From an uncultured virus (IMG/VR IMGVR_UViG_3300024503_000494) (Duplodnaviria; Heunggongvirae; Uroviricota; Caudoviricetes): a stretch of DNA of 64,000 nt. Shown here piece by piece: positions 3,142-61,654 of the stretch. Location: the IMG/VR virus record IMGVR_UViG_3300024503_000494, positions 1-64,000 of that record. One strand, given 5' to 3'. The position numbers were made by a program, and so were the translations under genes. Below the pieces are notes generated by a model. That model was given only the letters and a program-made list of their open reading frames with translations. It had not been told where the DNA came from and searched no databases. Within the stretch, counting starts at the first letter, position 1; the number at the start of each line of letters is the position of its first letter.

Positions 3142-3157
3142 CTTATTGGAGTTTAAA

Positions 3158-35799: not shown

Positions 35800-36255
35800 A
35801 TGAATTGGTATGATCGAGTTTCAAAGGATATTTCAAATATTCCAGATGCTGTGGCTTATTATGAAGCCCAATTAACTGAGGCAAAACAAGATGCCCGTAT
35901 AGCGGGGAACATCGAGAAAGCGTCTGCGCAGATGCCCGGCATTGTTGAAAATCGATTTAATCAACTTCAAGAAATTGAAGCAATTTTAGAATACCTAAAC
36001 ATTGAACTTCGTCGGCTTCGTAGTCAACATTTTCGTAAGTATCTTGAAAACTATCAACGTAGCCTCTCCTCTAGAGATTGTGAAAAATTTGTAGAGGGCG
36101 AGGCCGACGTTGTAGACTTTGAAAAAATTATCAATGACTTTGCCCTACTTAGAAATAAGTGGTTGGGTATTATCAAAGCATTAGATCAAAAACAATGGCA
36201 TCTAAGCAACATTGTTAAACTACGTGTAGCTGGTTTAGAAGACGCTACTCTTTAA
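35800..36255 (+). CDS. uvsY: Recombination mediator UvsY-like
   Basis: Helical; K.VEGE.D, LD.KQW...NIVKLRVAGLED; position after uvsX. Confidence 0.8.
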   Translation: MNWYDRVSKDISNIPDAVAYYEAQLTEAKQDARIAGNIEKASAQMPGIVENRFNQLQEIEAILEYLNIELRRLRSQHFRKYLENYQRSLSSRDCEKFVEGEADVVDFEKIINDFALLRNKWLGIIKALDQKQWHLSNIVKLRVAGLEDATL

Positions 36256-37046: not shown

Positions 37047-37900
37047 ATTAAGCTCTCAACAGTTTTCTTTAATCCGTCTTTCAATGATGTATATTCTGTA
37101 AATCCGGTTAATTTTTTCATCAGGGTAGTATCGGGGCAACGTCTTTTTGCACTACCTTTTGGACCTGGAAGTATTTCTAATTTCTCCGGATCTACTCCCA
37201 TTATGTCTAAAATAATTCTTGCTACTTCAGCAATTTCATTTTCTTCTTGTCTGCCTACGTTAACTATATAATTTTTATTATTTGTCACTAGTCTATGAGT
37301 TATTTCAACAGCATCGTCGATATAACAAAAACTTCTTGTATCATTGCCTTTGATATAATACTCACCTTTGGCAACACGTTCAACAAATTCGCTGATGAAA
37401 TGATCTACCTGACCAGGACCGTAGATATTAAAGTATCTAATAATTAACCAATCTAATCCAGAATTAGCAACTAAGTTTTCTCCTAGTGCTTTTGGTAAAC
37501 TATAGCTCCAGCGAGGATTGATCACATCTTCAAACATCACAGGAACTGATTCATCAGTGGGAACTGGATATAGTCCTTTATCAATAGCACCATTAAAAAT
37601 TTCACAAGTGCTTGTAAAAACAAATTTAGTATCTGTACCTTTATATCTATTAATTAAATTAAATGTTGGTAAAGTATTATTAAATGCAACTTCAGTTGGT
37701 TTTTCGTAGAACAGTTTGGTTCCATTGGTCGCGGCCATATGAACAACGACATCACAATTTGGAGAAGAATTTGTTATGTCTGGTAAACAAAGGTCTTGGC
37801 CTTCTCTTTTATCAAATACTACGGTTTCGTGTTTATCTTTAATTAAATTATAATAATGGCTACCAATAAATCCTCTATGGCCTGTAAGTAATATTTTCAT
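37043..37900 (-). CDS. NAD-dependent epimerase/decarboxylase (UDP-GlcA decarboxylase/ArnA-like SDR)
   Basis: TGHRGFIGS, HMAA, FTSTCE, PRWSYSLPK, RYFNIYGP, TRSFCYIDD, RRCPD. Confidence 0.85.
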   Translation of the reverse strand: MKILLTGHRGFIGSHYYNLIKDKHETVVFDKREGQDLCLPDITNSSPNCDVVVHMAATNGTKLFYEKPTEVAFNNTLPTFNLINRYKGTDTKFVFTSTCEIFNGAIDKGLYPVPTDESVPVMFEDVINPRWSYSLPKALGENLVANSGLDWLIIRYFNIYGPGQVDHFISEFVERVAKGEYYIKGNDTRSFCYIDDAVEITHRLVTNNKNYIVNVGRQEENEIAEVARIILDIMGVDPEKLEILPGPKGSAKRRCPDTTLMKKLTGFTEYTSLKDGLKKTVESLI

Positions 37901-37948
37901 AGAAATATTTATCGACTAAATATGAGCAGTTAATAGAATTGGACTACA

Positions 37949-38689
37949 ATGCGATCTTTTAGAGTAGTGACTACACAACATAAACCTTACTATGACCTTA
38001 TCGGTAAGGAATGTATTCAATCCTTTTTGAAATATTGGCCTAAAGAGGTTTCAATCGAATTATGGGCAGAAAATTTTGAACCCGACATAACAGACCCTAG
38101 ATTAATAATTAAAGATTTTAATAAAATAAATCCTAGATTTGAAAACTTTAAACAATTAATGTTTTCGTCAACAACAAATGACAAAGTATTATCTAAGAAA
38201 ACATTTTGGCTAAAAGGACACGTAGTTTTAACAGCTCTTGAAACTTTTGATTCCGATGTGTTTATATGGTTAGACAGTGATGTAATAACTCATAATTATG
38301 TTACCATTGAATATTTGAATTCTTTAATTCCAGAAGACACATTAGCTGTTGATGTTCCTGCAGGAGGAAAAGGTCGTGATAAAGAAGCAGAAACAGGATT
38401 TTTTGGATTAAATCTAAAAATGAAAGAATCAAAATCTGTTATCGATTACTATAGAGAATATCATACAACACTAAAAATGTTAGATACACCTAGATATATG
38501 GAAACATCCGTATGGTGGTCGGCTATAAAAAATTCAGGTGCAAAAGCTAATCATTTAAAAACATCTAAGGATCATTTGATGCCGTTTATGTATACTGAAT
38601 TAGCTCAATATATGCGTCATTGGGTAGCACAAAAAAATAAGGCTAATTATTCTAAAGGCAGCAGAGAAAAAACTCAGGAAGAACAATGA
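37949..38689 (+). CDS. Putative GT-A glycosyltransferase, paralog A1
   Basis: VVTT..YY...GK..I.SFLKYWP; FWLK; IWLDSDV DxD motif; ETGF. Confidence 0.65.
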   Translation: MRSFRVVTTQHKPYYDLIGKECIQSFLKYWPKEVSIELWAENFEPDITDPRLIIKDFNKINPRFENFKQLMFSSTTNDKVLSKKTFWLKGHVVLTALETFDSDVFIWLDSDVITHNYVTIEYLNSLIPEDTLAVDVPAGGKGRDKEAETGFFGLNLKMKESKSVIDYYREYHTTLKMLDTPRYMETSVWWSAIKNSGAKANHLKTSKDHLMPFMYTELAQYMRHWVAQKNKANYSKGSREKTQEEQ

Positions 38690-39264
38690 AATCAACAGCC
38701 CAAGCATATCAAGATTTATTCGTATATTCTTTATTCGGTAATAATGGAACATACATTGAAGTTGGTGCTCATAAACCAATAAAAAACAGTAACACTTATA
38801 ATTTAGAAGTAACGTGCGGCTGGAAAGGATTTGGCATAGAATTCAATGATTCTTTAAAAGAGTTTTGGGAAAAATCTCCTGAAAGAAAAAATAAAATTTA
38901 TTGGGAAGATGCATTGACATTTAATTACATCAATGCATTAACAGAAAATCTTTTACCAACACACATAAATTATTTGTCTTGTGATATAGAACCTCCAGAA
39001 AATACATTTAATGCTCTTAAGAATATTGTTGGTCAAGGAATTACTTTTGATATAATTACATTTGAACACGATTTATATAATTCAACAGTTGACTATAATT
39101 TAATTGCTACTGAGTTTTTATTAAACAACGGGTATAAAGTAGCAGTTACCGATGTATATTATAAAAAAGAAGAAAATTTATTCGAAACATGGTTTTTAAA
39201 AGACAACATAGAATTTAAAACTTGTTCGTTTAATGAATGGAAAGAAAGAACAAATTTGTTATGA
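38686..39264 (+). CDS. FkbM-like SAM methyltransferase
   Basis: AQAYQD.FV, YIEVGA, SNT..LE, W.G.GIE, YLSCDIE, ITFEHD. Confidence 0.75.
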   Translation: MKSTAQAYQDLFVYSLFGNNGTYIEVGAHKPIKNSNTYNLEVTCGWKGFGIEFNDSLKEFWEKSPERKNKIYWEDALTFNYINALTENLLPTHINYLSCDIEPPENTFNALKNIVGQGITFDIITFEHDLYNSTVDYNLIATEFLLNNGYKVAVTDVYYKKEENLFETWFLKDNIEFKTCSFNEWKERTNLL

Positions 39265-40022
39265 AAAAAATTGTTTTAATTACCGGAGGCTTTGATCCTC
39301 TACATTCTGGTCATATTGCTTATTTTAAAGCAGCAAAGGCATTGGGTGATATTTTAGTTGTAGGCGTAAATTCTGACGCTTGGCTAACACGCAAAAAAGG
39401 TGCTCCTTTTATGCCTTATATGGAACGTGCATCAATTGTACGGAATATAGTTGGTGTAGATTTTGTTATAGACTTTAATGACAGTGACGGTAGTGCTAAA
39501 CACGCCATACAAATGGTGCGTCAAAGTTATCCTCAAGAACGTATTATTTTTGCCAACGGTGGAGATAGAACCAAAGAAAATATTCCCGAAATGGACATCA
39601 AAGACGACAACCTAGAATTTGTGTTTGGTGTTGGCGGAGAAGATAAAAAGAATTCTAGTTCTTGGATTTTACAGGAATGGAAAGCACCTAAGACTGAACG
39701 TCAATGGGGTTACTATCGTGTTCTGCACGAAGTTCCTGGAATGAAAGTTAAGGAACTAACAGTTAATCCAGGTTGCAAATTATCAATGCAAAGACATAAG
39801 TATCGTTCAGAATATTGGATAGTGAGTGAAGGTAGAGCCGATGTTAACAAAATGATGGACAGCGGTTACTCGTTGCCGACTGCTAGATTAGAATTGCACG
39901 ACGAAGAAGATATTCCAGTCGGACAATGGCACCAATTAACAAACCCTTACGATGTGCCTTGTAGAATTGTAGAAATTCAATACGGTGAGCGTTGCGAAGA
40001 AGAGGACATAGAAAGAAAATGA
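39261..40022 (+). CDS. Cytidylyltransferase (HxGH) fused to mannose-6-phosphate-isomerase-type cupin
   Basis: GGFDPLHSGH, GVNSD, FANGGDR, KNSSS; R.WG.Y, LSMQRH..RSE.W, EIQYG..C.E.DIER. Confidence 0.85.
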   Translation: MKKIVLITGGFDPLHSGHIAYFKAAKALGDILVVGVNSDAWLTRKKGAPFMPYMERASIVRNIVGVDFVIDFNDSDGSAKHAIQMVRQSYPQERIIFANGGDRTKENIPEMDIKDDNLEFVFGVGGEDKKNSSSWILQEWKAPKTERQWGYYRVLHEVPGMKVKELTVNPGCKLSMQRHKYRSEYWIVSEGRADVNKMMDSGYSLPTARLELHDEEDIPVGQWHQLTNPYDVPCRIVEIQYGERCEEEDIERK

Positions 40023-40699
40023 TTAGAATATTCATTGGGTACGATCCTCGTGAAGCCGTGGCGTTTCACGTGTGTTCGAACAGTATTATTAGACAGGCTA
40101 GTTGCCCTGTTAGTATTACTCCCCTGGCGTTGAATACATTCAATGAGTACAAAGAAACACACAGCGATGGTAGTAATCAATTTATCTACTCTAGATTCTT
40201 AACACCTGCCCTATCGGACTTTATGGGCTGGGCTATATTTGTCGACGGCGATATGATTTTAAGAGATGATATTTTAAAATTATGGAATCTAAGAGACGAG
40301 TCAAAGGCAGTAATGGTAGTCAAACACGACTATAAAACTAAGATGACAGAAAAATATCTAGGCAGTAAGAACGAAGACTATCCTAGAAAAAATTGGTCTA
40401 GTGTTATCTTATGGAATTGCAGCCATCCTAAAAATAGAATCTTAACACCTAACTTCATTGAAAAATCTACAGGTGCACAGCTACATAGATTTACTTGGTT
40501 AGAAGACAATGACATTGGCGAATTGCCTAAAGAATGGAACTGGCTGGATGTCGAATATGATTATAACCCAGATGCAAAATTAGTTCATTATACGTTAGGT
40601 ACACCTTGCTTCCACGAATTTGCACATCAAGGAAGTTTTTCAGGCGAATGGCATCTTGAAAGAATTTATGCAGATTGGTGTCAACAAAGGAATCTATGA
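40019..40699 (+). CDS. GT8-like glycosyltransferase
   Basis: IFIGYDPRE, FIYSRFL, FVDGDM, YPRKNWSS, LPKEWNWL, HYTLGTP. Confidence 0.8.
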   Translation: MIRIFIGYDPREAVAFHVCSNSIIRQASCPVSITPLALNTFNEYKETHSDGSNQFIYSRFLTPALSDFMGWAIFVDGDMILRDDILKLWNLRDESKAVMVVKHDYKTKMTEKYLGSKNEDYPRKNWSSVILWNCSHPKNRILTPNFIEKSTGAQLHRFTWLEDNDIGELPKEWNWLDVEYDYNPDAKLVHYTLGTPCFHEFAHQGSFSGEWHLERIYADWCQQRNL

Positions 40700-41526
40700 A
40701 CAATTGGTTATTTTTAAGCAAAGACGGCCAGGACGAATATATTAATATGTTTGCTATCGGCACCGGAGGAAGAGTGGTGTCGACTGAAGATTTTATCTTT
40801 GAAGATTCCGAAGATCCTATTGTGATGAGAGGAATATTAAAAAAGAAAATAATTCAACAATGCTGGCGTGAACAACGAGATTTTTATTTTATTGACACTG
40901 GATATTTAGGAAATCAAAAAAGTCCTGTAAATCCAATGGGTTGGAAATACTATCATAGAATTGTAAAAAACGATTTGCAATACGAAGGAGATATAATTCC
41001 TAGACCTAATGATAGATTTAAACAGTTAGCTATTCCGATTAGCGATTGGAAAAAAGGCGGAAGAAAAGTTTTAATTGCTGCACCCGATGAAAAACCTATG
41101 AGGTTCTACGGATTAGATCGAGAACAATGGTTGGAAGAAACTATAGAAACAATTAAGAAATATACCGATAGACCGATTGTTGTTAGGGATAGAGTTAAGA
41201 GTAGATTAGATCGTGTAATTCATAATACACTAAAAGAAGCACTCGATGACGATGTTCATTGCCTAGTTACTTTTAATAGTAATTCTGCAACTGAGTCAGT
41301 CCTACACGGAATACCAGCATTTATACTTGCTCCAAGCCATGCGGCTAGTCCAGTAACATTAAGAGACTTAAGCAAGATTGAAAATCCGTATTATGCAGAC
41401 AAGGATAAAGTTTATGCTTGGGCTTGTCATCTAGCATATCTGCAATATCATAACAACGAACTTAGAGATGGTTCTGCAAAAAAGATGTTAGAAGAAACAT
41501 ATGAGTTAATAAAGGAACATAGATGA
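40696..41526 (+). CDS. KpsS/KpsC-like (capsule synthesis) GT-B protein, paralog B1
   Basis: IDTGY, RPIVVR, CLVTFNSNSATESVLHGIP. Confidence 0.6.
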   Translation: MNNWLFLSKDGQDEYINMFAIGTGGRVVSTEDFIFEDSEDPIVMRGILKKKIIQQCWREQRDFYFIDTGYLGNQKSPVNPMGWKYYHRIVKNDLQYEGDIIPRPNDRFKQLAIPISDWKKGGRKVLIAAPDEKPMRFYGLDREQWLEETIETIKKYTDRPIVVRDRVKSRLDRVIHNTLKEALDDDVHCLVTFNSNSATESVLHGIPAFILAPSHAASPVTLRDLSKIENPYYADKDKVYAWACHLAYLQYHNNELRDGSAKKMLEETYELIKEHR

Positions 41527-42206
41527 ACTTAAATTTTATTACCAGTCTTTCTAAAGAATATTGGGAAGGAACAGGAAAATTTTGTCTAAAGACTTGGAAA
41601 AATTTTCCAGGCACAGTGACAGTTTATATCGATCAACAAGAAGGTGACATAGCCTGGATCAATGAACTACCATCATCCTTTGTTAAAAAATTAGTTCGTG
41701 TTCCTAATCTAAATTTAGAAGATAGAGATTCTACAAAAATTAGAAAATTCTGGGGTAAAGCCTGCGCCCAGATATCTGCAATGAGAGAACGAGGTAAAGA
41801 TGAAAGAATAGTTTGGATAGATGCTGACGTTGAACAAACAGCATCCACTTTACCAGAATCTATTTTTTCTTTTAGTTTTATGGAACCAATTGCAATGTTA
41901 AACTCCGGTGACGGCGAAGACTGTTGGGAATCCGGCATAGTTGTTTTTAATCAAACTGCCGATAAGATCGATTTGGTTGTTAGAAAATATGAAAATATGT
42001 ATCTAAATCAAGATAACTTGTTTAGTCTATGGAAACCTTACGATGCACAGGCATTAGGTGCTGTGGCAATGGAAAGAGGATTTTTAAATTTATGCAAGAA
42101 AAAATGTCCTAATGCAGAAGCATTAGCTAATAGTCACTTTGCTCCATATTTTAAACATTGGATTAATAAAGATAATAAAAAATTATTAATTGAAAAGAAT
42201 AAATGA
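41523..42206 (+). CDS. Putative GT-A glycosyltransferase, paralog A2
   Basis: FITS..YW...GK; KFWGK; IVWIDADV; ESG. Confidence 0.6.
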   Translation: MNLNFITSLSKEYWEGTGKFCLKTWKNFPGTVTVYIDQQEGDIAWINELPSSFVKKLVRVPNLNLEDRDSTKIRKFWGKACAQISAMRERGKDERIVWIDADVEQTASTLPESIFSFSFMEPIAMLNSGDGEDCWESGIVVFNQTADKIDLVVRKYENMYLNQDNLFSLWKPYDAQALGAVAMERGFLNLCKKKCPNAEALANSHFAPYFKHWINKDNKKLLIEKNK

Positions 42207-43135
42207 CAACAGTAGCGGTATACCACGGTTCTGTACCAAACAAAAAGAGCCAAGAAAAAATTGATCTTTTAAGATACTTCTCTGAAGGTGCTAGAAGAAC
42301 AGGATCAATAGTCTACGACTATCTTGATCACTCTTATCGACCATCGGATGTGGCCATTATACAAGGTTGGGTCGCTCCCGGTCGGCCAACTGGTAAGCAT
42401 TTACTCTTAAGAAATACTGTTATTCAACAACAACTTAAAAATAAAAGACACGTAATAGGTGTTGACAGCAATTTATTTCTTTATAAAAATAAAGAAAATC
42501 CTTTGCATTATCTCAGATACAGTTTTGATGGAATATTTCCTAATACAGGAATTTATTGTGATACGGAAATTGATCCATTTCGATGGAAAAAAATTAGTCA
42601 TAATTTAAAAATTCAACCTAAAGAGTGGAGAACTAACGGAGACCATATTTTGTTGTTGCTACAAAGAAACGGCGGATGGAGTATGGGAAATCTTGATGTA
42701 CAAGACTGGGCTAACGATGTTATAGCTCAGGTAAGACAATATTCCGATCGACACATAATTATACGACCACATCCTGGAGATAAAGATGCTATAAATTATC
42801 TTAATCCTAGACTAGGTAGATGTAAAATTAAATTTTCTAAAAGAATCACTCTTAGCTATAATAAAAATTTAGAAGATGATTTAGTAGATTGTTGGGCAGC
42901 AATTAATTATAATTCAAGTCCTGCTGTAGGAGCAGCGATTGAAGGTGTTCCTATTTTTGTAATGGATCCTGCCCGTAGTCAGTGCGCAGAAATTGCTAAT
43001 ACTGATTTATCTCAAATTGAAAATCCACAAATGCCCTATAGAGACAGATGGCTTGAACGATTAGCCATGTTTCATTGGAATTTTGACGAACTAAGATCCG
43101 GCGAATGCTGGAGCCATATGAAAAAATTTATATGA
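42203..43135 (+). CDS. KpsS/KpsC-like GT-B protein, paralog B2
   Basis: IIIRPHPGD, INYNSSPAVGAAIEGVP. Confidence 0.6.
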   Translation: MTTVAVYHGSVPNKKSQEKIDLLRYFSEGARRTGSIVYDYLDHSYRPSDVAIIQGWVAPGRPTGKHLLLRNTVIQQQLKNKRHVIGVDSNLFLYKNKENPLHYLRYSFDGIFPNTGIYCDTEIDPFRWKKISHNLKIQPKEWRTNGDHILLLLQRNGGWSMGNLDVQDWANDVIAQVRQYSDRHIIIRPHPGDKDAINYLNPRLGRCKIKFSKRITLSYNKNLEDDLVDCWAAINYNSSPAVGAAIEGVPIFVMDPARSQCAEIANTDLSQIENPQMPYRDRWLERLAMFHWNFDELRSGECWSHMKKFI

Positions 43136-43881
43136 AAAAGATTTCTGTTATTACAAGTTTTAACGAAAAATATTATGAGTTAATTGGCAAATATTGTGTT
43201 GCTACATTTTTAAAAAATTGGCCAACTGACATTAATTTAACCTGTTACGTGGAAGAAATGTCATTAACTCCCGATCCACGTATTATACAAATTCCTTTTA
43301 CAGAACTTCCTGTTGAATATTTTGATTTGCAAAAAACAAAATTTAAACAAAGAGTAAAAACTTTTTCTAAAAAAGGTTATTCTGTAATTCACGCTATGGA
43401 AAACATAGATTGCGATCTATTAATATGGATTGATTCTGATGTATTAACACATACAGCGGTTCCTAGAGAATTTTTAGAAAATTTATGTTCGTCTAAAGAT
43501 CTAACTACGTTTATGGGTGTATGGCACGAAGCAAATGACAAAGAATATTTCAGTTGTGAATCAAGTTTTTTTGTTGTAAACAAAACTCATCAAAATTTTT
43601 CATTATTTTCAAAGAGATATCGTGAATATTATGATAATCGATTAACTGAGAATTTAAGAAGATTCTATGACGGTGAAGTCCTTGGAGCAACTATTAAAGA
43701 TTTAGAAAAATTAGGAGGTATGAATGAAATTAATCCTAACTTTCACAAAACTCCGATGCCAAGAACCATACTAAAAGATTATTTTACTCATTTTAAGGCA
43801 GGACTAAAAGAAGATGATGACCTTGATACGAGTATTGAAGAATTAATTGGCAATATTCAAACTGTTCCAGTTTGCCAATAA
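43132..43881 (+). CDS. Putative GT-A glycosyltransferase, paralog A3
   Basis: VITSF..YY...GK....FLKNWP; FSKK; IWIDSDV; ESSF; HFKA. Confidence 0.65.
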   Translation: MKKISVITSFNEKYYELIGKYCVATFLKNWPTDINLTCYVEEMSLTPDPRIIQIPFTELPVEYFDLQKTKFKQRVKTFSKKGYSVIHAMENIDCDLLIWIDSDVLTHTAVPREFLENLCSSKDLTTFMGVWHEANDKEYFSCESSFFVVNKTHQNFSLFSKRYREYYDNRLTENLRRFYDGEVLGATIKDLEKLGGMNEINPNFHKTPMPRTILKDYFTHFKAGLKEDDDLDTSIEELIGNIQTVPVCQ

Positions 43882-44672
43882 CTTTCTTTTCTTCTAACCT
43901 TTAGATCTTGAGGCTTACTACGGCCTAGATCTTTTCTACCGCCTTTCAAATGGTCAAGATATGCTCCCCATTCACTGTTAATCAGCGGATGACCTTCTCC
44001 AGTGATAAGATGGCTGCTCCAATCTAATTCATTTAAGGTTGAATTTCGTCGTACGACATCAAATACAAAACTATCATGCCATTCTTCTAAGGTAAAAATT
44101 CCTAATTCTGCACAATCGTACATCCATTGAAATTTTTCTAAGAATTTTTGAACAGCAGGTGAACGCAAATTCATTGCGTAAAGGCCACATTCACTAAATT
44201 TTCCTTTTCTTCCAAGAAAACACAAATCTTTGTCTGCCGGAATTAGACGTTGAATTGTTTCCATGGTAATTGGACTATGACAAATGGTATCTGCGTCCAT
44301 CCAAACTAAAATATCTGCGTCAGTTTCCTTAGCACAGTGAAAAATTGCATAGACTTTGTGGGCAAATCTAACAGCATCCCATTTAAAACCTTTGCCAGCA
44401 TCTTTTCTTCGACTTCGAATAGGATCTGCTGATACATCGCCGTTAGCCTTGGGAACATTTTTCCACTTTTCTTTAAATTTCATAAGCTCTTCAACTTCTT
44501 CAAGGCGTTTTAATGTCACGTGATTGTGATTTCGTATTGCAGGATTACAAAGTTCTGGATAAATGTGAAGGGTGACCTCTTCTGGCCACTTTTCACAAAA
44601 ACTATCTATCATTTTTTGGCCGTATTTTGCACGACCCGCATCATTAAAAGTTGTTACCACTGCATATTTCAT
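43857..44672 (-). CDS. Putative GT-A glycosyltransferase, paralog A4
   Basis: VVTTF....YG..MI.SF..WP; RFAHKV; VWMDADT; ECG; WHDS; HLKG. Confidence 0.7.
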   Translation of the reverse strand: MKYAVVTTFNDAGRAKYGQKMIDSFCEKWPEEVTLHIYPELCNPAIRNHNHVTLKRLEEVEELMKFKEKWKNVPKANGDVSADPIRSRRKDAGKGFKWDAVRFAHKVYAIFHCAKETDADILVWMDADTICHSPITMETIQRLIPADKDLCFLGRKGKFSECGLYAMNLRSPAVQKFLEKFQWMYDCAELGIFTLEEWHDSFVFDVVRRNSTLNELDWSSHLITGEGHPLINSEWGAYLDHLKGGRKDLGRSKPQDLKVRRKESYWQTGTV

Positions 44673-45067
44673 TTTCTTTTTTCCCAAACGTGAAATTTTT
44701 TATCAACCGAGGTGCATACCCAGCCTGTATTGTATAGAGCCTTCATTGTTTTTTTGTCTACTATAGAATTTCCTTCGACTATTACAACAGATTTAAATCT
44801 TGTCCAAAAATTATTCAATTTTTCCAGCCTATCTATTTTATCTAGGTTAAAGTATATGGCCTTTATTTCATATAATGTTTCAATATAGTCAAAATTTTCT
44901 CTATAAATTAATTTTTTTGATTTTAAAGATCTATCTTCTGCTTCTATTATAAAAGTTGTGTTATGTAAAGACACTATGTCCTGCAACATTCCAAAACCGT
45001 CACCAATTACCAAAGCATTTTCTGCTCTGCCAATAATTTTTTTGATCTTTTTTTCAAACGAGGCCAT
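44669..45067 (-). CDS. Hypothetical (possible degenerate methyltransferase fold)
   Basis: NALVIGDGFG; ATGA-coupled to paralog A4. Confidence 0.5.
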   Translation of the reverse strand: MASFEKKIKKIIGRAENALVIGDGFGMLQDIVSLHNTTFIIEAEDRSLKSKKLIYRENFDYIETLYEIKAIYFNLDKIDRLEKLNNFWTRFKSVVIVEGNSIVDKKTMKALYNTGWVCTSVDKKFHVWEKRK

Positions 45068-51068: not shown

Positions 51069-51253
51069 AAGACAATGAAGAATATATTTCAAGAGATGAT
51101 CTTGATATTGAAGTTATGAGCACCTCTGATGAAGAGCCCTGCGTTTATGTTAAATTTTCAAATTTTGCAGACGCTGAAGATGCAGAAGAATATGCAGATT
51201 TTTTAGCAGAAACATTACCTCTATTGTTATTTGAAACTACTAGGATGCAATAA
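51065..51253 (+). CDS. Small acidic hypothetical protein
   Basis: 62 aa, ATGA-coupled. Confidence 0.6.
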   Translation: MKDNEEYISRDDLDIEVMSTSDEEPCVYVKFSNFADAEDAEEYADFLAETLPLLLFETTRMQ

Positions 51254-51254
51254 T

Positions 51255-51833
51255 ATGCCTGATATCGATATTGACTTTGTTGATAGAGACAATGCCTTAA
51301 AACACTTTAAACACGTTAAGGCAAGTCGTATTGACGACGGAAAATTAGTCAAGCACAATACGGGCGTGTATATGCACGAAGTACCTATGAGTTCCCTCGA
51401 AGCAGTATGTGCGGTACCTTACGACAAAGCAGAAGAACAGGGTTATTTTAAAATTGACTTTTTGAATGTAGGTTTATACAAAGGTGTTCGAGACGAAGAA
51501 CATCTTGTACAATTAATGAACACGGAGCCACTATGGGATCTTCTAGAGCAAGACGATTTCGTCAACTTACTCTTTCACGTAAACGGGCATGGTTCTATAT
51601 TAAGGCAAATGAAGCCGACGAGTGTGGAACAACTGGCGGCCATTCTAGCAATGATACGCCCAGCGAAACGTTATCTGATTGGCAAAGATTGGACTACGGT
51701 GATGACGGAAGTTTGGACGAAACCGGAGAATGACGAATACTATTTTAAAAAATCACACGCTACAGCGTATGCGGTAGCTATTGTGGTTCAGATGAATTTA
51801 ATCTGCGAAGGTATTAGTTACGGATTTAGTTAA
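51255..51833 (+). CDS. dnaE: Miniature DNA polymerase III alpha (C-family) catalytic fragment
   Basis: MPDIDIDF, KHNTGVY, YFKIDFLNV, LAMIRP, YYFKKSHATAYA; 192 aa. Confidence 0.85.
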   Translation: MPDIDIDFVDRDNALKHFKHVKASRIDDGKLVKHNTGVYMHEVPMSSLEAVCAVPYDKAEEQGYFKIDFLNVGLYKGVRDEEHLVQLMNTEPLWDLLEQDDFVNLLFHVNGHGSILRQMKPTSVEQLAAILAMIRPAKRYLIGKDWTTVMTEVWTKPENDEYYFKKSHATAYAVAIVVQMNLICEGISYGFS

Positions 51834-52229: not shown

Positions 52230-53309
52230 ATGCAATTTAATCCAGTTTATTTATACACAAATAAGTTAGACGTATTTACAAGTCCCTCGGACGCTTGGTC
52301 ATCAGAGAGGTATCGTAAAGTGTACAATCGCAATTTAAAAATATATCGTGGTGTTGATAATCGCATTGACATCCAAGTTCGTAATCCCGATCAAAAAGCC
52401 AGTAACATAACTGGTTCTACTTTGGTATTTAATCTAATTTCTAAAGTGACAAAAGATTTAGTATTACAGAAAGATTTTGACACAATGGATTTATCTACAG
52501 GAAAAGTAACAGTAATTTTAACTGACAACGAATTGTTAAACGTTGATAACGGATTCTACGAATATAGTATTGTTAAAGAAATTAGAGAAACAGTTGATTC
52601 AACAGATTACCGAGTAACTTCTAAGATGCCATTGTATGTTGACAGTCAATACGGACCAACTGGGGTTTTAGAAATCCTAGGTGATGTTTATGGAACTGTA
52701 GAAAGCAGTAAGATAATCAATACCTTTAATTACGTCAATCCATTTACACAAGGAGATACTACTCCTGCTTGGTTTGAAAGCGAAATTATAGATGCAAGAC
52801 CGAAAATAAAAACAGGAAATGCCCTACACACATTTCAATTTTACTCTACTAACTACGACGGATCAGTAATCATACAAGGAAGTCTAGACGATCAAGGAGC
52901 ATCGCCTAGGCACGATAAATGGGTCAATATCGATTCTGTAGATCTAACTGTTGAAAGCTATAAAAACATAATTGGTAATTGGAGTTGGTTTAGAATTAAA
53001 CATATTCCTTCGAGGTCATCTAACACAGCTCAATTTGTTATTAGCCAAACAATGTTATTGAATTATCAGGCATCTGTTTACAGCCCAGGTCAAGGATACC
53101 AAATTGGAGACACAATTACTATACCAGGAAATCAATTAGGCGGTGAACTAGGTACTAATGATCTAGTTATTACAGTCACAGGCGTAAGTCCCGGTGGTGC
53201 AATTGTATCTATAGATTGGACAGGTCTTTCTTATAACGGCGTCAAAACTTTTGTTCTTTCTGGCACAACTTCCGGCATTGGAAGTCTTGACAAAGTTCTC
53301 TATAGATAA
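52230..53309 (+). CDS. Putative virion/baseplate protein
   Basis: KIYRGVDN N-terminus; carries one GQGY..GD...G..LGG....ND module; TAAATA upstream. Confidence 0.55.
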   Translation: MQFNPVYLYTNKLDVFTSPSDAWSSERYRKVYNRNLKIYRGVDNRIDIQVRNPDQKASNITGSTLVFNLISKVTKDLVLQKDFDTMDLSTGKVTVILTDNELLNVDNGFYEYSIVKEIRETVDSTDYRVTSKMPLYVDSQYGPTGVLEILGDVYGTVESSKIINTFNYVNPFTQGDTTPAWFESEIIDARPKIKTGNALHTFQFYSTNYDGSVIIQGSLDDQGASPRHDKWVNIDSVDLTVESYKNIIGNWSWFRIKHIPSRSSNTAQFVISQTMLLNYQASVYSPGQGYQIGDTITIPGNQLGGELGTNDLVITVTGVSPGGAIVSIDWTGLSYNGVKTFVLSGTTSGIGSLDKVLYR

Positions 53310-53315
53310 TATACT
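53287..53315 (+). promoter_or_regulatory. Sigma70-type promoter
   Basis: TTGACA-N17-TATACT, ATG 6 nt later. Confidence 0.8.
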
Positions 53316-53321
53316 ATATCT

Positions 53322-54371
53322 ATGACACTAGTCGTAGATAAATTTCGAACGTTACTTCCTCCGCGAGCCAAACACTCGCCGTCTGGTTGGACATCGTTTA
53401 ACGCCCCTTGTTGCCAGCATCGTGGCCATAGTCCCGATACTCGCAAACGTGGTGGTATTAGGTTTGACGGAAATAGTGTAGTTTATAATTGCTTTAACTG
53501 CAAGTTTTCTACAGGCTGGCAACCAGGGGCACCCTTTGGTGAAAAAATGAAAACACTGGCGCGATGGATGGGCGCCAGTGAAGACCTTATAAAAGATCTA
53601 GTGTTTGAAGCTCTTAAAACAGAAGGTCCCGATTATCACGAATATCATTCAGAAGATAACACCCCAATAAATTTTACAGATAAAGCATTACCAGAAGGTG
53701 CGATGCCTTTGGCAGAATGGGGGAATTTAATAGAAGGCGAAGTTGAAGAACAGATTGGTGAAGACTATTCAAACGTATTAAGATATCTAATCAGCAGAGG
53801 ATATAACAATCCATTTGAATATGATTTTTATTGGAGCCCGGCTCCTGGATATATTGATAGAGTTATTGTTCCTTTTAGATGGGAAGGAAGAATAGTAGGA
53901 AATACAGCTAGAAAAGTTAGAGACGGAAAACCAAAATATCTTTCAGATCAACATCCACATTTTGTATTCAACTTTGACCGTCAAAAAGAAAATCAGAAGT
54001 ATATATTTGTCTGCGAAGGTCCATTTGATGCATTGGCAATAGACGGTGTTGCTCTTCTTACTAACGATATAGCTGAACAACAATCTAGGATAATTAATAG
54101 TCTAGGTGCTGAAGTTATTGTAATTCCGGATCAAGATCAAGCAGGACTAGTATTATTTGACAGAGCTGCCGAATTAAATTGGTCAGTGGCTATGCCTAAC
54201 TGGGACGACGATGTAAAAGACGTTGCAGATGCTGTAAAATCCTACGGAAAATTATTTGTTATTGTTGATGCAATAAAGACAGCACAAAAAGGATCGATTA
54301 AAATTAATATGGCTAAGAAGCAACAAGAACACAAATTGGAGAGACTCGAATATGCTAAAGAAAATACTTAA
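53322..54371 (+). CDS. DNA primase (T4 gp61/DnaG-like)
   Basis: Zn finger PCC...CFNC; YL..RG, PKY; TOPRIM VCEGPFDA and PDQD. Confidence 0.9.
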   Translation: MTLVVDKFRTLLPPRAKHSPSGWTSFNAPCCQHRGHSPDTRKRGGIRFDGNSVVYNCFNCKFSTGWQPGAPFGEKMKTLARWMGASEDLIKDLVFEALKTEGPDYHEYHSEDNTPINFTDKALPEGAMPLAEWGNLIEGEVEEQIGEDYSNVLRYLISRGYNNPFEYDFYWSPAPGYIDRVIVPFRWEGRIVGNTARKVRDGKPKYLSDQHPHFVFNFDRQKENQKYIFVCEGPFDALAIDGVALLTNDIAEQQSRIINSLGAEVIVIPDQDQAGLVLFDRAAELNWSVAMPNWDDDVKDVADAVKSYGKLFVIVDAIKTAQKGSIKINMAKKQQEHKLERLEYAKENT

Positions 54372-54468
54372 TATCATTTTATATCCCTACAGAAAATATC
54401 AAGAACATCAAAGATTTAAAAAACGGATCGCTGAATTAAGAAAACGGGATCCTTTCATTTACAAATGA
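54352..54468 (+). CDS. 38-aa basic micro-ORF (not in ORF track)
   Basis: MLKKILNIILYPYRKYQEHQRFKKRIAELRKRDPFIYK*; GGAG RBS; ATGA-coupled to next gene. Confidence 0.75.
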   Translation: MLKKILNIILYPYRKYQEHQRFKKRIAELRKRDPFIYK

Positions 54469-55409
54469 TAAGCTGGGGAATAAACGCACTTAATCACGGC
54501 TCTAGTCTTGCCGTGTTTAAAGACGGAAAATTTATTTCAAATACCTTTGATAAGACTGACACGTTAGATACTAAGACTATTACAACTGCTCTACATCACG
54601 GAGCACCTTCGGATATATTTTGGTACGAAAGGCCTTGGATTAAAAAAGCAAGACAGGCCTATGCAGGTCAATGGCATAGAGTCTTTGATTTTCAAGCAAT
54701 ACCTAGTGCCTATATTAGAAGTATACGTGCTAATTATGCAAAGATGCATTATACTCCGCATCACGCAAGTCACGCTGCCGCTGGTTACTATACCAGTCCA
54801 TTTAACCATTGTGCCATTGTTGTGCTTGATGCGATTGGCGAATGGGAATGCGCTACAATATGGGAAGGTAAACACGGCGAAATGAAAAAAGTATGGAGTA
54901 AGACATATCCTAACAGTTTAGGATTATTTTATTCCGCTTTCACTGAGTTAATAGGGCATACTCCTATTCAAGATGAATTTCTTTTACAAAAAGATGCAGA
55001 ACTAGGCGATCCTAACAAATATTATTTTGATGTAAAAGAATATATGGGCAGCGTTATTAATGCGCATCAAAATATGCATCAAGGCATTTGGAATTGGCCG
55101 TATGAAATTACCAATGAAGACAAGGTACACATTGCCGCTGCCGTTCAGGAAGTGTTTGAAGAACAAATTGATATGGTAATGAAAATTGCCAAAGATTTAA
55201 CAGGAGCCGATTGTCTAGTATATATGGGTGGCTGTGCTATGAATAGTCGAGCAAACAAAAAGGTAGTAGAACCAAAATTTAATTACATTTGGTCATTGCC
55301 GCAACCTGGCGATCCTAGTAGCAGTATTGGCGCTGTACTGTATCACACTAAGCAAAGAGTTTGGGATGCAAACCTTGGGGTTGTAAAACATATCGAGATT
55401 CGTGTATAA
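54465..55409 (+). CDS. Carbamoyltransferase N-terminal (Kae1-like) domain only
   Basis: HHASHAAAGYYTSPF, VLDAIGE, YP.SLGLFYSAFT, GGCAMNS, PGD.SSSIGA; no C-terminal domain. Confidence 0.85.
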   Translation: MISWGINALNHGSSLAVFKDGKFISNTFDKTDTLDTKTITTALHHGAPSDIFWYERPWIKKARQAYAGQWHRVFDFQAIPSAYIRSIRANYAKMHYTPHHASHAAAGYYTSPFNHCAIVVLDAIGEWECATIWEGKHGEMKKVWSKTYPNSLGLFYSAFTELIGHTPIQDEFLLQKDAELGDPNKYYFDVKEYMGSVINAHQNMHQGIWNWPYEITNEDKVHIAAAVQEVFEEQIDMVMKIAKDLTGADCLVYMGGCAMNSRANKKVVEPKFNYIWSLPQPGDPSSSIGAVLYHTKQRVWDANLGVVKHIEIRV

Positions 55410-55416
55410 TAGTATT

Positions 55417-56034
55417 ATGTTGAGTACAGAAAAAAAATTTACTAGCGGAAATCAATGGATCATCGATTCGGAATATCCTAACTATAAAAATTTGTATAAA
55501 TTTTTATTGCCTAGTAACGAGCAAGAATATAGTTCCGAGACATCGGCGCATTTTGCAAAACAATATCCATTGTGGAGAGATCCTAATCTTTCTGACGAAT
55601 ACTATTCACATAAAAAATTCAATAACGATAATTCTTCAATACCTTGGCAGCAAGAACTCGACAACATTACAAAATGGACTCAGGCAAAATTAATAGAGCA
55701 TCATATCATTAAACAAATCACGCCTGTAATATCTTGGTGGATGGACTATGAGCCAGGTGGCTGGCAGGCGATGCATACGCATAGTGTAAATTGTATTACA
55801 CAGGTAATTTATATGGATGAGCCCAATATTAATGAAAGTACTGCGGCAAAGGATTATACGCCTGGATCAATGTATGCGTTAATGACAGATGGAAAACCAG
55901 TATATATTCCATTTGTTGGATTTCCTGGTAGAAGTATTTTAATGACAGGAGATGTATTTCACGGAGTATATCCTGTTAAGACCACACCAAGAAGATCAAT
56001 TATTATAGATTACATTTACAACAAAAATGATTAA
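55417..56034 (+). CDS. 2OG-Fe(II) oxygenase
   Basis: WWMDYEPGGWQAMHTH...HGVYP....RRS. Confidence 0.7.
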   Translation: MLSTEKKFTSGNQWIIDSEYPNYKNLYKFLLPSNEQEYSSETSAHFAKQYPLWRDPNLSDEYYSHKKFNNDNSSIPWQQELDNITKWTQAKLIEHHIIKQITPVISWWMDYEPGGWQAMHTHSVNCITQVIYMDEPNINESTAAKDYTPGSMYALMTDGKPVYIPFVGFPGRSILMTGDVFHGVYPVKTTPRRSIIIDYIYNKND

Positions 56035-57466
56035 AGACTACGGATACGAACTACAAAAATTATATCTTGAGCTAATGCTAGCAGACGCAGAAGTGTTTGT
56101 ACGTTGCCAAGGTATTTTTGATCACACACTTTTTGACAGAAAATTACAAGATGCAGCAGAGTTTATTAATCTCTATGCAAAAGAATATTCTGTTATGCCT
56201 GACTACGAAATGGTTAATGCATCGTGTAGATCAGATCTTAAAAAGCCAGAAGATATCAAAGAAGGTCACAACGATTGGCTAATGGACGAGTTTGAAAACT
56301 TTACTCGCCATAAGGCATTAGAACGTGCAATTATTAATTCTGCAGATTTACTTGAAAAGAAAGACTACGGTCAAGTAGAATCTATGATTAAAGAAGCAGT
56401 ACAAATTTCTTTAACTAAAGATCTAGGCACTGATTATTTTGAAGATCCTAGACAGCGATTAATGCGTATCAAAGACAAGAATGGTCAAATTAGCACAGGC
56501 TGGCCTACTCTTGATCGTAGACTATTTGGAGGAATGAATCGTGGAGAACTTAACATTTTTGCTGGTGGATCAGGTGCAGGTAAATCCCTCTTTCTTGCTA
56601 ACCTTGGCGTGAATTGGTGTCTACAAGGACTTAATGTTTTATATCTAACATTAGAACTTTCAGAAGACCTAGTAGCTATGCGTATTGATGCAATGACTAC
56701 TGGTATTTCAACAAAAGAGATTTTTAAAGATCTAGAAAACGTTGAAATGAAAGTTCGTGTTATTGGTAAGAAGGCTGGTAAACTACAAATCAAATATATG
56801 CCTAGTGGCAAGACTGCCAATGACCTTAGAGCATATATGAAAGAGTTTGAAATCAAAACAGGTGCTAAGATTGATGTATTACTAGTAGATTACTTAGACT
56901 TGTTAATGCCAGCAAGTCGTAAGATTTCAGCAGAAAACTTGTTTATTAAAGACAAGTATGTTTCTGAAGAATTACGCAACCTAGCAATGGAAAAACAATG
57001 TATTCTAGTTACTGCGGCACAGTTGAACCGTGGTGCTGTTGAAGAAGTTGAATTTGACCACAGTCATATTTCAGGCGGTCTTTCTAAGATTCAAACAGCA
57101 GATAACGTGTTTGGTATCTTTACGTCACGTGCTATGCGTGAGCGTGGACGTTATCAAATACAATTAATGAAAACTCGTTCTAGTTCAGGTGTAGGACAAA
57201 AGGTAGATCTAGAGTTTAATCTAGAAACGCTTAAGATTAGCGATTTGCCCGAAGATGAACAAGAGTCGCATAACGGAGCAAATAGAGGCACAAGCAGTAT
57301 CATTGACAGCATTAAACGTAAAACAGAAATTAATAAAGTAGATCCAGAAACAGGCGAAATAGATCCAACCCAAGGCGCTAGCATAGGCAAAGTTCGAGCA
57401 AATGTAGGTTCGTCAAAACTACGTGAAATCTTGAACAGTATGGGTGGTGATGATGAAGACATCTAA
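56027..57466 (+). CDS. Replicative helicase (T4 gp41/DnaB-like)
   Basis: GGSGAGKS, TLELSE, VDYLDL, TAAQLNR, KIQTAD, MKTR. Confidence 0.93.
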   Translation: MIKDYGYELQKLYLELMLADAEVFVRCQGIFDHTLFDRKLQDAAEFINLYAKEYSVMPDYEMVNASCRSDLKKPEDIKEGHNDWLMDEFENFTRHKALERAIINSADLLEKKDYGQVESMIKEAVQISLTKDLGTDYFEDPRQRLMRIKDKNGQISTGWPTLDRRLFGGMNRGELNIFAGGSGAGKSLFLANLGVNWCLQGLNVLYLTLELSEDLVAMRIDAMTTGISTKEIFKDLENVEMKVRVIGKKAGKLQIKYMPSGKTANDLRAYMKEFEIKTGAKIDVLLVDYLDLLMPASRKISAENLFIKDKYVSEELRNLAMEKQCILVTAAQLNRGAVEEVEFDHSHISGGLSKIQTADNVFGIFTSRAMRERGRYQIQLMKTRSSSGVGQKVDLEFNLETLKISDLPEDEQESHNGANRGTSSIIDSIKRKTEINKVDPETGEIDPTQGASIGKVRANVGSSKLREILNSMGGDDEDI

Positions 57467-58075: not shown

Positions 58076-58789
58076 ATGCGTTTACGTGAATTAGATGAAT
58101 CTTCAGATTTTGTTACCGTAAACTCAAAACTAAACCCTAAAATTTGGGCAAGTGACAAACTCAATCCAGAAGTTAGAAATAAATTAATTGAAATTGCACA
58201 CGCCTTTGAAGAATTTGTAGGCATTGATCTAGAAGTAGAAGATTACACAATCACCGGATCTAATGCTAATTATACTTGGACACAGTATTCAGATCTAGAT
58301 TTACACATTATCATCCCAGGCACAGCAACAGACGAACAACGTGAATTATTTTCCGCTAAAAAGGCACTTTGGGCAGAACAACACGACATCACTATCAAAG
58401 GCTTGCCCGTAGAATGCTACGTACAAGGCGCAGATGAACCACATCACTCAACAGGCGTTTTTTCTCTGTTAGATGATAAGTGGCTCGTAGAGCCCAAGAA
58501 GGTAAAACCTCAAGTAGACGATGCTGCAATTGAAGCCAAAAAAGATGCAATACTGCGTCAGATCGAACACGCATTATTGAGCAAGGATATCGATAAGTTA
58601 CGCACAGTAAAAGATAAAGTTACACAGATGCGCAAGAGCGGATTGGAACGTGCGGGCGAGTGGTCAGTAGAAAATCTTGTATTCAAAATACTTCGTAACC
58701 TTGGACTTATCGACGAGCTCACTGACAAAATTAGAGAATTGGAAGATCAAGAACTTTCTCTAGAACAGGCTATACAACCGCTTGACTAA
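58076..58789 (+). CDS. Pol-beta-superfamily nucleotidyltransferase
   Basis: TGSNANY.W..YSDLDLHI (GS + DxD), PVECY third acid. Confidence 0.8.
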   Translation: MRLRELDESSDFVTVNSKLNPKIWASDKLNPEVRNKLIEIAHAFEEFVGIDLEVEDYTITGSNANYTWTQYSDLDLHIIIPGTATDEQRELFSAKKALWAEQHDITIKGLPVECYVQGADEPHHSTGVFSLLDDKWLVEPKKVKPQVDDAAIEAKKDAILRQIEHALLSKDIDKLRTVKDKVTQMRKSGLERAGEWSVENLVFKILRNLGLIDELTDKIRELEDQELSLEQAIQPLD

Positions 58790-58838: not shown

Positions 58839-59276
58839 ATGTTACACATCATCCAAGACTTATCAGATAATCTACTTAATTTAATCAAAGACGATCCTGT
58901 TCGTCCTGAAATTCCCGTTGAACAAAGAGTTAATCAAAACTCAAAAATCTTTGTTCTTCGCGACGAAACCACACAAGAACCTCTGGCAGTGACCTGCGTA
59001 AAGTTCTTAGAAAAAATTCCTAGTTCTGTGAACGATCTAGCCGAAGCTGCAATTAACACAAATACCGCAGTATTCTATACTATTTGGTCATATGCTGCTG
59101 GTGCAGGCCGTACTCTAATCGAACAGGCTCAAGAGCACATTAAAAAGGAACACCCTGAAGTGGAAACCTATGTTACTCTAAGTCCTAAGACAGAAATGGC
59201 CAAGAGATTTCACTTGAAAAACGGTGCTGAGATTCATAGAGAAAACGAAGATAGTGTAAACTACCTATACCACTAA
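58839..59276 (+). CDS. GNAT-fold protein resembling malonyl-CoA decarboxylase catalytic domain
   Basis: EPLAV, TAVFYTI, GAGRTLI, YVTLSP, FHLKNGA. Confidence 0.6.
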   Translation: MLHIIQDLSDNLLNLIKDDPVRPEIPVEQRVNQNSKIFVLRDETTQEPLAVTCVKFLEKIPSSVNDLAEAAINTNTAVFYTIWSYAAGAGRTLIEQAQEHIKKEHPEVETYVTLSPKTEMAKRFHLKNGAEIHRENEDSVNYLYH

Positions 59277-61030: not shown

Positions 61031-61654
61031 ATGCAGACCCTAGGCTTATTTTCCGAACCCGTGACTCGCCAACAGATTTGGCCCGGAACCTGGCAACAGC
61101 AGCTTGATCAGATTCCCTGTGAATATCAGACCAATCACTGTTACTCCCTGTCCCAGAGAGTTTTGGACACAGTTCCAGATCTACACCAAATAATTGAACA
61201 AAGGGTTCAACAGTGGGCTGAACAGGTTCTGGGCATCACGGATACACTCTACATCACAGAAAGTTGGATCAATGTCTATAATACCGGCGACTCCATACAT
61301 CAGCACAGCCACCCTAATTCCATAGTGTCGGGAACTTGGTATTGGTCAACACCCGAAACAGAGATTAGATTTCACAAACAGGGCTTAAACTCATCTACAC
61401 ACTGGACTATGAAACTGGATCAAAGGCCCACAGCCTGGTCACAGACAGAAGTCATACTGCCCGTAGAACAAGGTGATCTACTCCTATGGCCCAGTTATCT
61501 ACAGCACTCAACCACAGCACACACCAGCGAAGAACCAAGAAAAACTCTGAGCTTTAATGCAATGCCTAGATCTTGGGGAAGTAATTTCTATAGAGTCGGC
61601 GAAGCCGCAGCGCAAATTCCTGAGCGCGAAGCGCAGCAGCGCAAGATTTTTTAG
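61031..61654 (+). CDS. 2OG-Fe(II) oxygenase (TIGR02466-like)
   Basis: SWINVY, HSHPNS.VSG.WY, GDLLLWPSYLQH, R.TLSFN. Confidence 0.85.
   Translation: MQTLGLFSEPVTRQQIWPGTWQQQLDQIPCEYQTNHCYSLSQRVLDTVPDLHQIIEQRVQQWAEQVLGITDTLYITESWINVYNTGDSIHQHSHPNSIVSGTWYWSTPETEIRFHKQGLNSSTHWTMKLDQRPTAWSQTEVILPVEQGDLLLWPSYLQHSTTAHTSEEPRKTLSFNAMPRSWGSNFYRVGEAAAQIPEREAQQRKIF

Follow-up and report, generated by a model that had tools for sequence, protein, structure and literature searches.

What would half of a carbamoyltransferase be doing between the primase and the helicase of a giant phage? The question is raised by a stretch of 64,000 nucleotides (nt), here called the window, which makes up positions 1 to 64,000 of the 78.9-kb IMG/VR contig IMGVR_UViG_3300024503_000494 (completeness estimate 22%); the sequencing runs containing it carry riverine metagenome labels, and its helicase shares 49-52% identity with the helicases of two giant phages, PA5oct (Pseudomonas) and Atu_ph07 (Agrobacterium). 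Three genes lie within its primase-helicase operon, namely a micro open reading frame (micro-ORF) encoding 38 amino acids (aa), a carbamoyltransferase (CT) gene and a gene for a protein of 2-oxoglutarate (2OG)-Fe(II)-oxygenase fold (Table 1). An earlier reading made without database searches (the sequence-only reading) had placed these genes correctly and described them rightly as overlapping, and had proposed that they form a module that hydroxylates and then acylates nucleic acid, coupled to replication. The conserved core of the insert appears rather to be a two-gene unit, consisting of a peptide of approximately 35 residues with an invariant C-terminal DPFIY(K/R) and a compact class-III CT, which is widespread in uncultured aquatic phages. 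The unit occupies the primase-helicase junction in a clade of giant phages akin to PA5oct and Atu_ph07. In what follows CTs of at most 340 aa are called half and those of at least 440 aa full.

In PMC9633730, CTs of the TobZ/NodU class are described as enzymes of two domains, which form carbamoyl-AMP and consume it within a single protein. The 314-aa CT of the window has only the N-terminal domain, as the sequence-only reading had stated: its single Pfam match is Carbam_trans_N (PF02543; E 6e-26, profile positions 124-345), it ends approximately 15 residues past that domain, and it has no match to Carbam_trans_C (PF16861), for which the only match in the 78.9-kb record is the 608-aa protein encoded at 4090-5916, a protein matching both families. 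Its AlphaFold2 model, built on 26 relatives (predicted local distance difference test, pLDDT, 96), is matched by Foldseek to the Kae1-like domains of GdmN, NovN, TobZ and VtdB (E 6e-20 to 1e-15; query TM-score, TMq, 0.73-0.80) and next to TsaD, Kae1 and Qri7 (TMq 0.53-0.63). PMC9633730 also gives the iron ligands of GdmN as H133, H137, D156 and D333. In a phmmer alignment the first three align directly with H99, H103 and D122 of the half CT, and D283 corresponds approximately to D333, as judged from a second stretch of that alignment; all four are invariant among 26 half-length relatives, the set on which residue invariance of the CT was judged and which extends down to 29% identity, so that the HHxxH and D metal ligands are kept, as had been noted. 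Likewise invariant is H11 (in GINALNHGSS), which lies in an N-terminal loop equivalent to the general-base loop (GdmN H27, TobZ H14) and is a candidate general base, placed by the position of this loop and not by residue-level alignment to a solved structure. Since the four ligands and H11 are invariant, the transfer site appears to be intact, and the adenylate-forming YrdC-like domain is absent. The MGLA segment is altered as reported, KVMGLAPYGDP of NovN being aligned to LLQKDAELGDP, whereas the claim that ERxxR is altered was only partly right, since E55-R56 and K60/R63 are kept and invariant.

The half CT accordingly resembles the class III O-carbamoyltransferases (TobZ, NodU/NolO, GdmN, NovN, VtdB) in its PF02543 match, its Kae1-like fold, its predicted 2-His/2-Asp iron site and a candidate histidine at the general-base position. 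It differs from them in lacking PF16861, so that carbamoyl-AMP formation would not be possible, in having a shorter N-terminal subdomain, in the replacement of the KVMGLA segment and in being preceded by a dedicated micro-ORF, which is not found 5' of the CTs of RsoM2USA and C48C1. The C-terminal KHIEIRV of the half CT was considered as a retained last strand of the full enzyme, and was dropped, its only basis being that MAFFT placed four residues under ...VKVF.

The missing domain seems to have been lost long ago. Our survey of 102 related IMG/VR loci yielded 86 distinct CT proteins, 58 of them with primase and helicase detected on both sides, and in this slot 48 loci hold a half CT (46-100% identical to that of the window) and 10 a full two-domain CT of 484-493 aa (38-44% identity). 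One slot holds the full enzyme in distant phages and the half enzyme in the clade of the window, which speaks for a C-domain lost long ago and for good, and against a recent truncation. The sequence-only reading had allowed for the latter, with a full-length gene in close relatives; as it turns out, relatives mostly keep the half gene, and the full gene is confined to more distant ones. In a tree of N-domains (111 rows) the window falls within an all-half clade of 17 rows, with a support of 98 in the Shimodaira-Hasegawa-like approximate likelihood ratio test (SH-aLRT), which in turn belongs to a larger clade (SH-aLRT 97) with 31 rows of half and 9 of full CTs; the assignment to half or full has to change at least 7 times on well-supported branches, although fragments may account for some of the scattered half rows. 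A search of cluster representatives likewise returned half-length (274-345 aa) and two-domain (about 450-530 aa) CTs mixed at 33-45% identity.

It might be argued that an enzyme whose donor-making domain is missing is in decay or has lost catalysis, or that it now serves structure or regulation and transfers nothing, and one 71%-complete relative without any donor-making CT fits such a notion. We nonetheless regard this as exceedingly improbable. The best 120 of 3877 homologues are all 311-318 aa long at 64-95% identity, and same-locus identities (half CT 60-81%, helicase 67-86%, primase 38-88%) make the half CT about as conserved as the helicase and usually more so than the primase. Furthermore the candidate general base and the four metal ligands do not vary, the fold is predicted with confidence and the half-only lineages are old and diverse. 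The transfer domain is thus under strong purifying selection in the clade of the window.

The other component of the unit is the micro-ORF. Of 68 distinct ORFs upstream of the CT in related loci, 63 terminate in DP[FY]IY and a single further residue, and D, P, I and Y never vary, although their codons differ synonymously (GAT/GAC; CCT/CCG/CCA/CCC; ATT/ATC/ATA; TAC/TAT). Since the residues are constant while the codons vary, it is the peptide that is under selection, and the micro-ORF is a real gene. Conservation is focused on the last approximately 16 residues, the N-terminus being variable; DPFIY is always followed by 0-2 residues and then a stop, and the distance from this stop to the next start is -8 to +8 nt. 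With a DNA pattern for DPFIYK-TGA at least 120 more viral stretches were retrieved; in 51 of the 80 that were read, the gene starting in the overlap is a CT. Among the 29 other followers 22 were scanned against Pfam, 12 of them being DUF6071/GDSL-like and others including MetK, NTP-transferase, Smr, DUF1289, zf-CHCC and matchless small ORFs. When 20 records with a non-CT follower were searched for a CT, 18 were found to hold one, in 17 cases within 2.6 kb downstream on the same strand as judged by coordinates. DUF6071 proteins, which also give GDSL/SGNH-type profile matches, indeed recur beside this CT family, often in the order micro-ORF, DUF6071, CT (loci L121, L128, L132, L133, L152, L170, L192 and others), and in a 125-kb IMG/VR contig (L187) it is an S-adenosylmethionine (SAM) synthetase gene that begins in the stop/start overlap of the DPFIYK micro-ORF, with the CT after it. 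Of 10 large records, 9 contain the motif once and the tenth has a DPYIY variant.

The motif is furthermore not confined to micro-ORFs. A profile search of longer proteins gave 70 matches, all with DPFIY and mostly as the extreme C-terminal tail of unrelated proteins, the bearers being GatZ/KbaZ-like, SnoaL-like, methyltransferase, DUF6071 and HAD proteins. The GatZ/KbaZ-like (PF08013) proteins of large phages (loci L247-L320, IMG/VR) carry the tail ...RLEELRKRDPFIYR and are followed by a CT of approximately 490 aa, sister loci having the tail as a small ORF; of the 74 GatZ/KbaZ-like viral loci, 41 have the tail fused, 22 encode it as a separate ORF of 33-67 aa and 11 lack it, with the CT of about 490 aa following in 61. 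The unit is therefore tail, stop and CT start, whichever protein bears the tail.

At least 140 distinct IMG/VR loci among those read contain members of the DPFIY family. The family has no Pfam or PHROG match, the ESM Atlas holds 30 unnamed clusters for the peptide, and a literature search found no paper containing the motif RKRDPFIYK. Megablast of the 4.1-kb region against isolated phages gave zero matches, and tblastn of the 38-aa peptide against isolated phages gave none either, possibly owing to the low-complexity filter. The two closest annotated CTs from isolates, those of RsoM2USA (47% identical to a full CT of the slot) and C48C1, have no upstream DPFIY ORF; this look-up covered these two of the three closest, the third being the CT of marine virus AG-345-D19. 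In RsoM2USA (L001, gp200/201) two DUF6071 genes and a radical SAM gene lie 5' of the CT. Since the searches of isolated phages gave no match, the peptide family is known only from metagenomes. Many of the public proteins P0293-P0344 run beyond DPFIYK through a Q or W into the next gene, twice into the N-terminus of a CT, and are likely false fusions. Database proteins such as P0310 and P0312, in which DPFIY is followed by KQ or KW, might pass for fusions of micro-ORF and CT; they were likewise not counted, as they look like read-through of a stop under an alternative code.

In the giant-phage slot the primase precedes the micro-ORF in all 58 distinct loci. The sequence-only reading had taken the three genes of the window to be inserted, and this is borne out by PA5oct and Atu_ph07, in which the primase directly adjoins the helicase with no micro-ORF or other gene in between. 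In the window the 3' end of the primase gene and the micro-ORF share 20 nt, the stop of the micro-ORF overlaps the start of the half CT as ATGA (in AAATGA), and the 2OG ORF, for which public gene calls place the start at ATG 55417, overlaps the helicase gene by 8 nt. A scan for promoters and terminators in the region returned 21 sites against a shuffle mean of 23.6, hence no excess, and is to be read as a hint only. Contigs from the metatranscriptome libraries of four runs cover most of the region and cross the primase/micro-ORF/CT junction (54234-54536) as well as the 2OG/helicase junction (55426-56089). Such contigs cannot give strand, level or true transcription, DNA carry-over is possible and coverage gaps are uninformative, and they are accordingly compatible with co-transcription across the slot without demonstrating it.

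What the peptide does can be approached by way of complex prediction, with a tool whose mark was passed in calibration by 116 of 157 solved complexes and 2 of 215 mismatches. Co-folding of the half CT with the micro-peptide, which the sequence-only reading had suggested, passed this mark weakly: the median interaction prediction score from aligned errors (ipSAE) was 0.41 (runs 0.62, 0.40 and 0.41) against 0.01 for the best control, with partner pLDDT of at least 66 and contact agreement of at least 84%, although scores of at most 0.60 were reached by only 18 of the 157 solved complexes and by both passing mismatches, so that a pass in this weak band is more often wrong than right unless the pairing is likely beforehand, and the tool gave no interface. 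The prediction weakly favours the notion that the peptide may be a docking partner of the N-domain, and its single-copy status and constant linkage to the CT operon favour a docking partner or a substrate.

Conservation limited to the last approximately 16 residues, a constant spacing to the stop and the acceptance of any N-terminal body would suit a docking motif at the C-terminus, and they would suit a leader as well. The micro-ORF could in the latter case act purely in cis, its last approximately 16 residues acting in the ribosome tunnel at the stop and controlling termination or reinitiation, perhaps in response to a metabolite, with no role for the free peptide. Beyond the variable N-terminus and the 0-2 residues between DPFIY and the stop, such a leader is in agreement with a stop that overlaps or abuts the next start at -8 to +8 nt, with the appearance of the element on unrelated upstream proteins, and with the fact that DUF6071, MetK, NTP-transferase, Smr or DUF1289 can take the place of the CT as the next gene. 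We nevertheless consider a leader unlikely, since the element is single-copy and nearly always found in a CT operon, as a general coupling device need not be, since stop/start overlaps are common in phage genomes anyway, and since the complex prediction, if weakly, favours binding; to our knowledge the DPFIY tail furthermore bears no likeness to any known arrest peptide.

Alternatively, the peptide could be a substrate or scaffold, the CT O-carbamoylating the invariant tyrosine of DPFIY, or its proline once hydroxylated by the 2OG enzyme where present, so that the peptide, or the tail borne by an upstream protein, would be modified like a scaffold or like a ribosomally synthesised and post-translationally modified peptide (RiPP). 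The related enzyme HypF carbamoylates HypE at its C-terminal residue, and an invariant single-copy C-terminal core does head operons of a tailoring type (CT, DUF6071/GDSL-like and MetK, with radical SAM/SPASM genes upstream in L059 and L080); the weak pass of the complex prediction and the peptide prolyl hydroxylases among the nearest folds of the 2OG protein point the same way. However, fusion of the tail to a GatZ-like body of approximately 320 aa in 41 of 74 loci is atypical for precursor peptides, the radical SAM neighbours are exceptions, and the complex prediction offers no interface that would place the tail at the active site, and we hold a substrate role to be decidedly improbable. 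A broader proposal is that the DPFIY tail is a new portable C-terminal module, either a carbamoylated acceptor (tyrosine or hydroxylated proline, in a phage RiPP-like or protein-tail system) or a nascent-chain gate of the CT operon, which in the giant-phage clade would have become wired into the replisome operon, its enzyme being split into separate proteins for donor synthesis and for transfer; this is conceivable, if rather doubtful.

The sequence-only call of a 2OG oxygenase stands on its fold and on its invariant residues, and not on its sequence match, which falls below the Pfam cut-off (PF13759, E 6e-4, 20.6 bits against a gathering cut-off of 27; phrog_81, E 2e-4). The AlphaFold2 model (pLDDT 84) has as its best matches in the Protein Data Bank (PDB) bacterial prolyl-4-hydroxylases, the HIF prolyl hydroxylase PHD2, PasI/PolD and ALKBH5 (E 3e-7 to 1e-5, TMq about 0.5-0.56). 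H125, H127, H187 and R197, which we take from the motif to be the metal and 2OG ligand positions, are invariant in 15 homologues. The protein is thus akin to the PF13759 oxygenases of marine and freshwater phages and to bacterial prolyl-4-hydroxylases in its PDB matches and its invariant His and Arg, and differs from the PF13759 family in its sub-threshold score and in having only 15 close homologues, of which 4, at 44-50% identity, are labelled PF13759. Of the 48 distinct half-CT loci only 5 have the gene between CT and helicase, and the 10 full-CT loci all lack it there, so that it is to be seen as accessory; other loci have ORFs of 38-57 aa, DUF1289 or a hydrophobic ORF of 78 aa at this junction, which, being occupied by different small genes, evidently accepts insertions. 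The 2OG gene is accordingly a real oxygenase-fold gene and a variable accessory insertion, not the obligate partner of the CT, and the proposed hydroxylate-then-acylate module finds no support in these counts. The window also holds a second and much clearer PF13759 2OG-Fe(II) oxygenase gene (61031-61654, E 2.5e-20), which shows no significant similarity to the one at 55402-56034.

A nucleic-acid target would require the 2OG enzyme to hydroxylate a base, or to make a hydroxymethyl base, in nascent DNA or RNA primers, and the half CT to carbamoylate it at the fork with carbamoyl-AMP from the 608-aa CT. The location within the primase-helicase operon, the seemingly intact transfer site and, weakly in view of possible DNA carry-over, the RNA-library contigs crossing both slot junctions speak in its favour, as does the precedent of a phage CT that carbamoylates 5-hydroxymethylcytosine (5hmC). 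This enzyme has two domains and 63 kDa, co-occurs with a thymidylate-synthase homologue and prefers single-stranded DNA (Yang et al., eLife 2021, PMC8670742). It is, like the half CT, phage-encoded and of TobZ type, and its preference for single strands would suit a replisome location; in contrast to it, the half CT lacks the C-domain, the complete relative has no PF00303 match and the family neighbours are of a sugar-tailoring kind. This complete relative (G006, 364.5 kb) is the sole complete genome in the comparison, most records compared being 7-71% complete. PF00303 gave no match in G006, G001, G003, G004, G005, G007 and G041; the search did not extend to the record of the window, and G003 and G041 are contigs of a phage identical to the window over this region. 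G006 and G007 have ThyX, and the single PF00303 match, in G002 (270 kb, 71% complete), scores as a thymidylate synthase (E 3e-109). A complete relative with ThyX and without a thymidylate-synthase-fold hydroxymethylase is in poor agreement with base modification, and so is the occurrence of the 2OG gene at just 5 of 48 half-CT loci. Among the folds nearest to the 2OG protein, protein prolyl hydroxylases and enzymes of nucleoside antibiotics rank above ALKBH5, and Pfam gave no TET/JBP match. The peptide and CT unit is moreover found outside the replication slot at 28 of 86 distinct loci, some of which merely lack flanks, where most adjoining genes belong to sugar tailoring or are unrelated accessory genes (DUF6071/GDSL-like, UDP-glucose dehydrogenase, NTP-transferase, GatZ/KbaZ-like, sulfotransferase-like and radical SAM). 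We therefore find a nucleic-acid target very unlikely, and the coupling to replication put forward by the sequence-only reading comes down to the position of a unit that is portable.

The window itself has a cluster of sugar-nucleotide and glycosyltransferase genes at 36252-44687, with UDP-glucose/GDP-mannose dehydrogenase-like, NAD epimerase/dehydratase, cytidylyltransferase plus mannose-6-P isomerase cupin, GT8-like and GT2-like members.

The account that we favour, and which in our judgement is about evenly balanced between being right and wrong, is that of a portable unit of peptide and CT, whose enzyme has in the clade of the window been reduced to the transfer half and uses a donor supplied in trans, the 2OG gene being accessory. 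Stand-alone Kae1-fold transferases exist in Kae1, TsaD and Qri7, which in the synthesis of N6-threonylcarbamoyladenosine (t6A) at A37 of tRNA use threonylcarbamoyl-AMP (TC-AMP) from a separate Sua5/TsaC protein of YrdC fold and need the small partners TsaB and Pcc1. The half CT is related to these by its fold match (TMq 0.53-0.63), although by sequence it is not a member of the Peptidase_M22/TsaD family, Pfam giving Carbam_trans_N only. By analogy the half enzyme would bind an acyl-adenylate and transfer the carbamoyl group to a hydroxyl or amine acceptor. As the adenylate-forming domain is absent, the half CT presumably cannot make its own adenylate, and a donor in trans is a logical requirement. 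This donor would most plausibly be carbamoyl-AMP from the phage's own 608-aa CT, otherwise from a host enzyme. To judge from the neighbours of the family, a DNA base would be a less likely acceptor than a sugar, a glycan or the peptide itself. The peptide would act with the N-terminal domain as docking partner, substrate or translational leader, would have stayed with the enzyme after loss of the C-domain and could come as the tail of an upstream protein, and the 2OG gene would have been inserted independently, as an accessory, at a junction open to such additions.

That the full enzyme encoded in the window serves as donor, as the sequence-only reading had also suggested, is in agreement with a domain fit for transfer only and with the presence of a separate CT of 608-633 aa alongside the half form in 7 of 11 records, including the sole complete genome, compared with 1 of 10 records in which a full peptide-linked CT is accompanied by a second Carbam_trans_C. 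In the complete relative the only Carbam_trans_C is that of the 608-aa-type CT and there is no PF01300 match, and relocation of the C-domain as a separate gene was for this reason rejected there. Several points nevertheless weigh against the account as a whole. The contrast of 7 of 11 with 1 of 10 is confounded by shared ancestry, the records representing essentially one clade, and by their incompleteness. G002 has a half CT and no Carbam_trans_C, and its contig runs well past the place that the 608-aa gene has in the window, so that either the link to a donor in trans is not universal or the gene lies in the missing 29% of this genome. A Sua5/YrdC (PF01300) gene was not found in 5 relatives, which sets them apart from the t6A system as well. 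The 12 DUF6071 and other genes that directly follow the peptide show that it is not strictly bound to the start of a CT, and the inference of a sugar target stems from neighbours of other family members and not from this locus.

As to its own surroundings, the 608-aa CT overlaps the stop of an upstream gene of 315 aa (window 3146-5916 for the pair; phrog_8954, E 5e-141, no Pfam match), which is glycosyltransferase-like by eye, and the pair lies just before an ORF of 2151 aa.

Table 1. Genes and signals of the primase-helicase slot, and the full-length CT, in window coordinates
Feature	Position	Strand	Evidence and remarks
Sigma-70-like promoter match just 5' of primase	53287..53315	+	TTGACA-17-TATACT, 11/12 positions; weak evidence
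DNA primase (gp61-like, Toprim)	53322..54371	+	phrog_47 E 7e-34; PF13155 E 6e-4
Micro-ORF, 38 aa, peptide end ...RKRDPFIYK	54352..54468	+	Conserved C-terminus across related loci; without Pfam or PHROG match
Half CT, 314 aa, Kae1-like transfer domain, without YrdC-like domain	54465..55409	+	PF02543 only, E 6e-26
2OG-Fe(II)-oxygenase-fold protein, PF13759-like	55402..56034	+	210 aa from GTG; 205 aa from ATG 55417
DnaB-like replicative helicase (gp41-like)	56027..57466	+	PF03796 E 4e-21; phrog_19 E 4e-72
Full two-domain CT, 608 aa	4090..5916	+	PF02543 and PF16861, E 1e-57

Some further genes surround the slot. Just 3' of the helicase the window encodes a 145-aa protein matching the malonyl-CoA decarboxylase C-terminal domain (58839-59276; PF05292, E 7e-12), which adjoins a 237-aa nucleotidyltransferase-domain protein (58076-58789; PF01909, E 1e-4; phrog_36119). 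Upstream of the primase, an ORF of 200 aa (51231-51833) matches the "DNA polymerase" phrog_11778 over its whole 197-position profile (E 9e-68) and looks like a small stand-alone piece of polymerase, as annotated in Atu_ph07 (gp074).

The most interesting aspects of the locus are an undescribed DPFIY tail that accompanies a CT family and a naturally split form of an enzyme that is normally self-contained and carries out two steps. The half-CT lineage, having the transfer half only and being under strong selection, would offer a natural test of the hand-over of carbamoyl-AMP between proteins. The undescribed family of DPFIY peptides and tails (…RKRDPFIYK) is tied to phage CT operons, and finding its role would explain a recurrent and overlooked gene of aquatic phages. 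Recognising the peptide would furthermore improve gene calling, since public sets hold false fusions across its stop codon.

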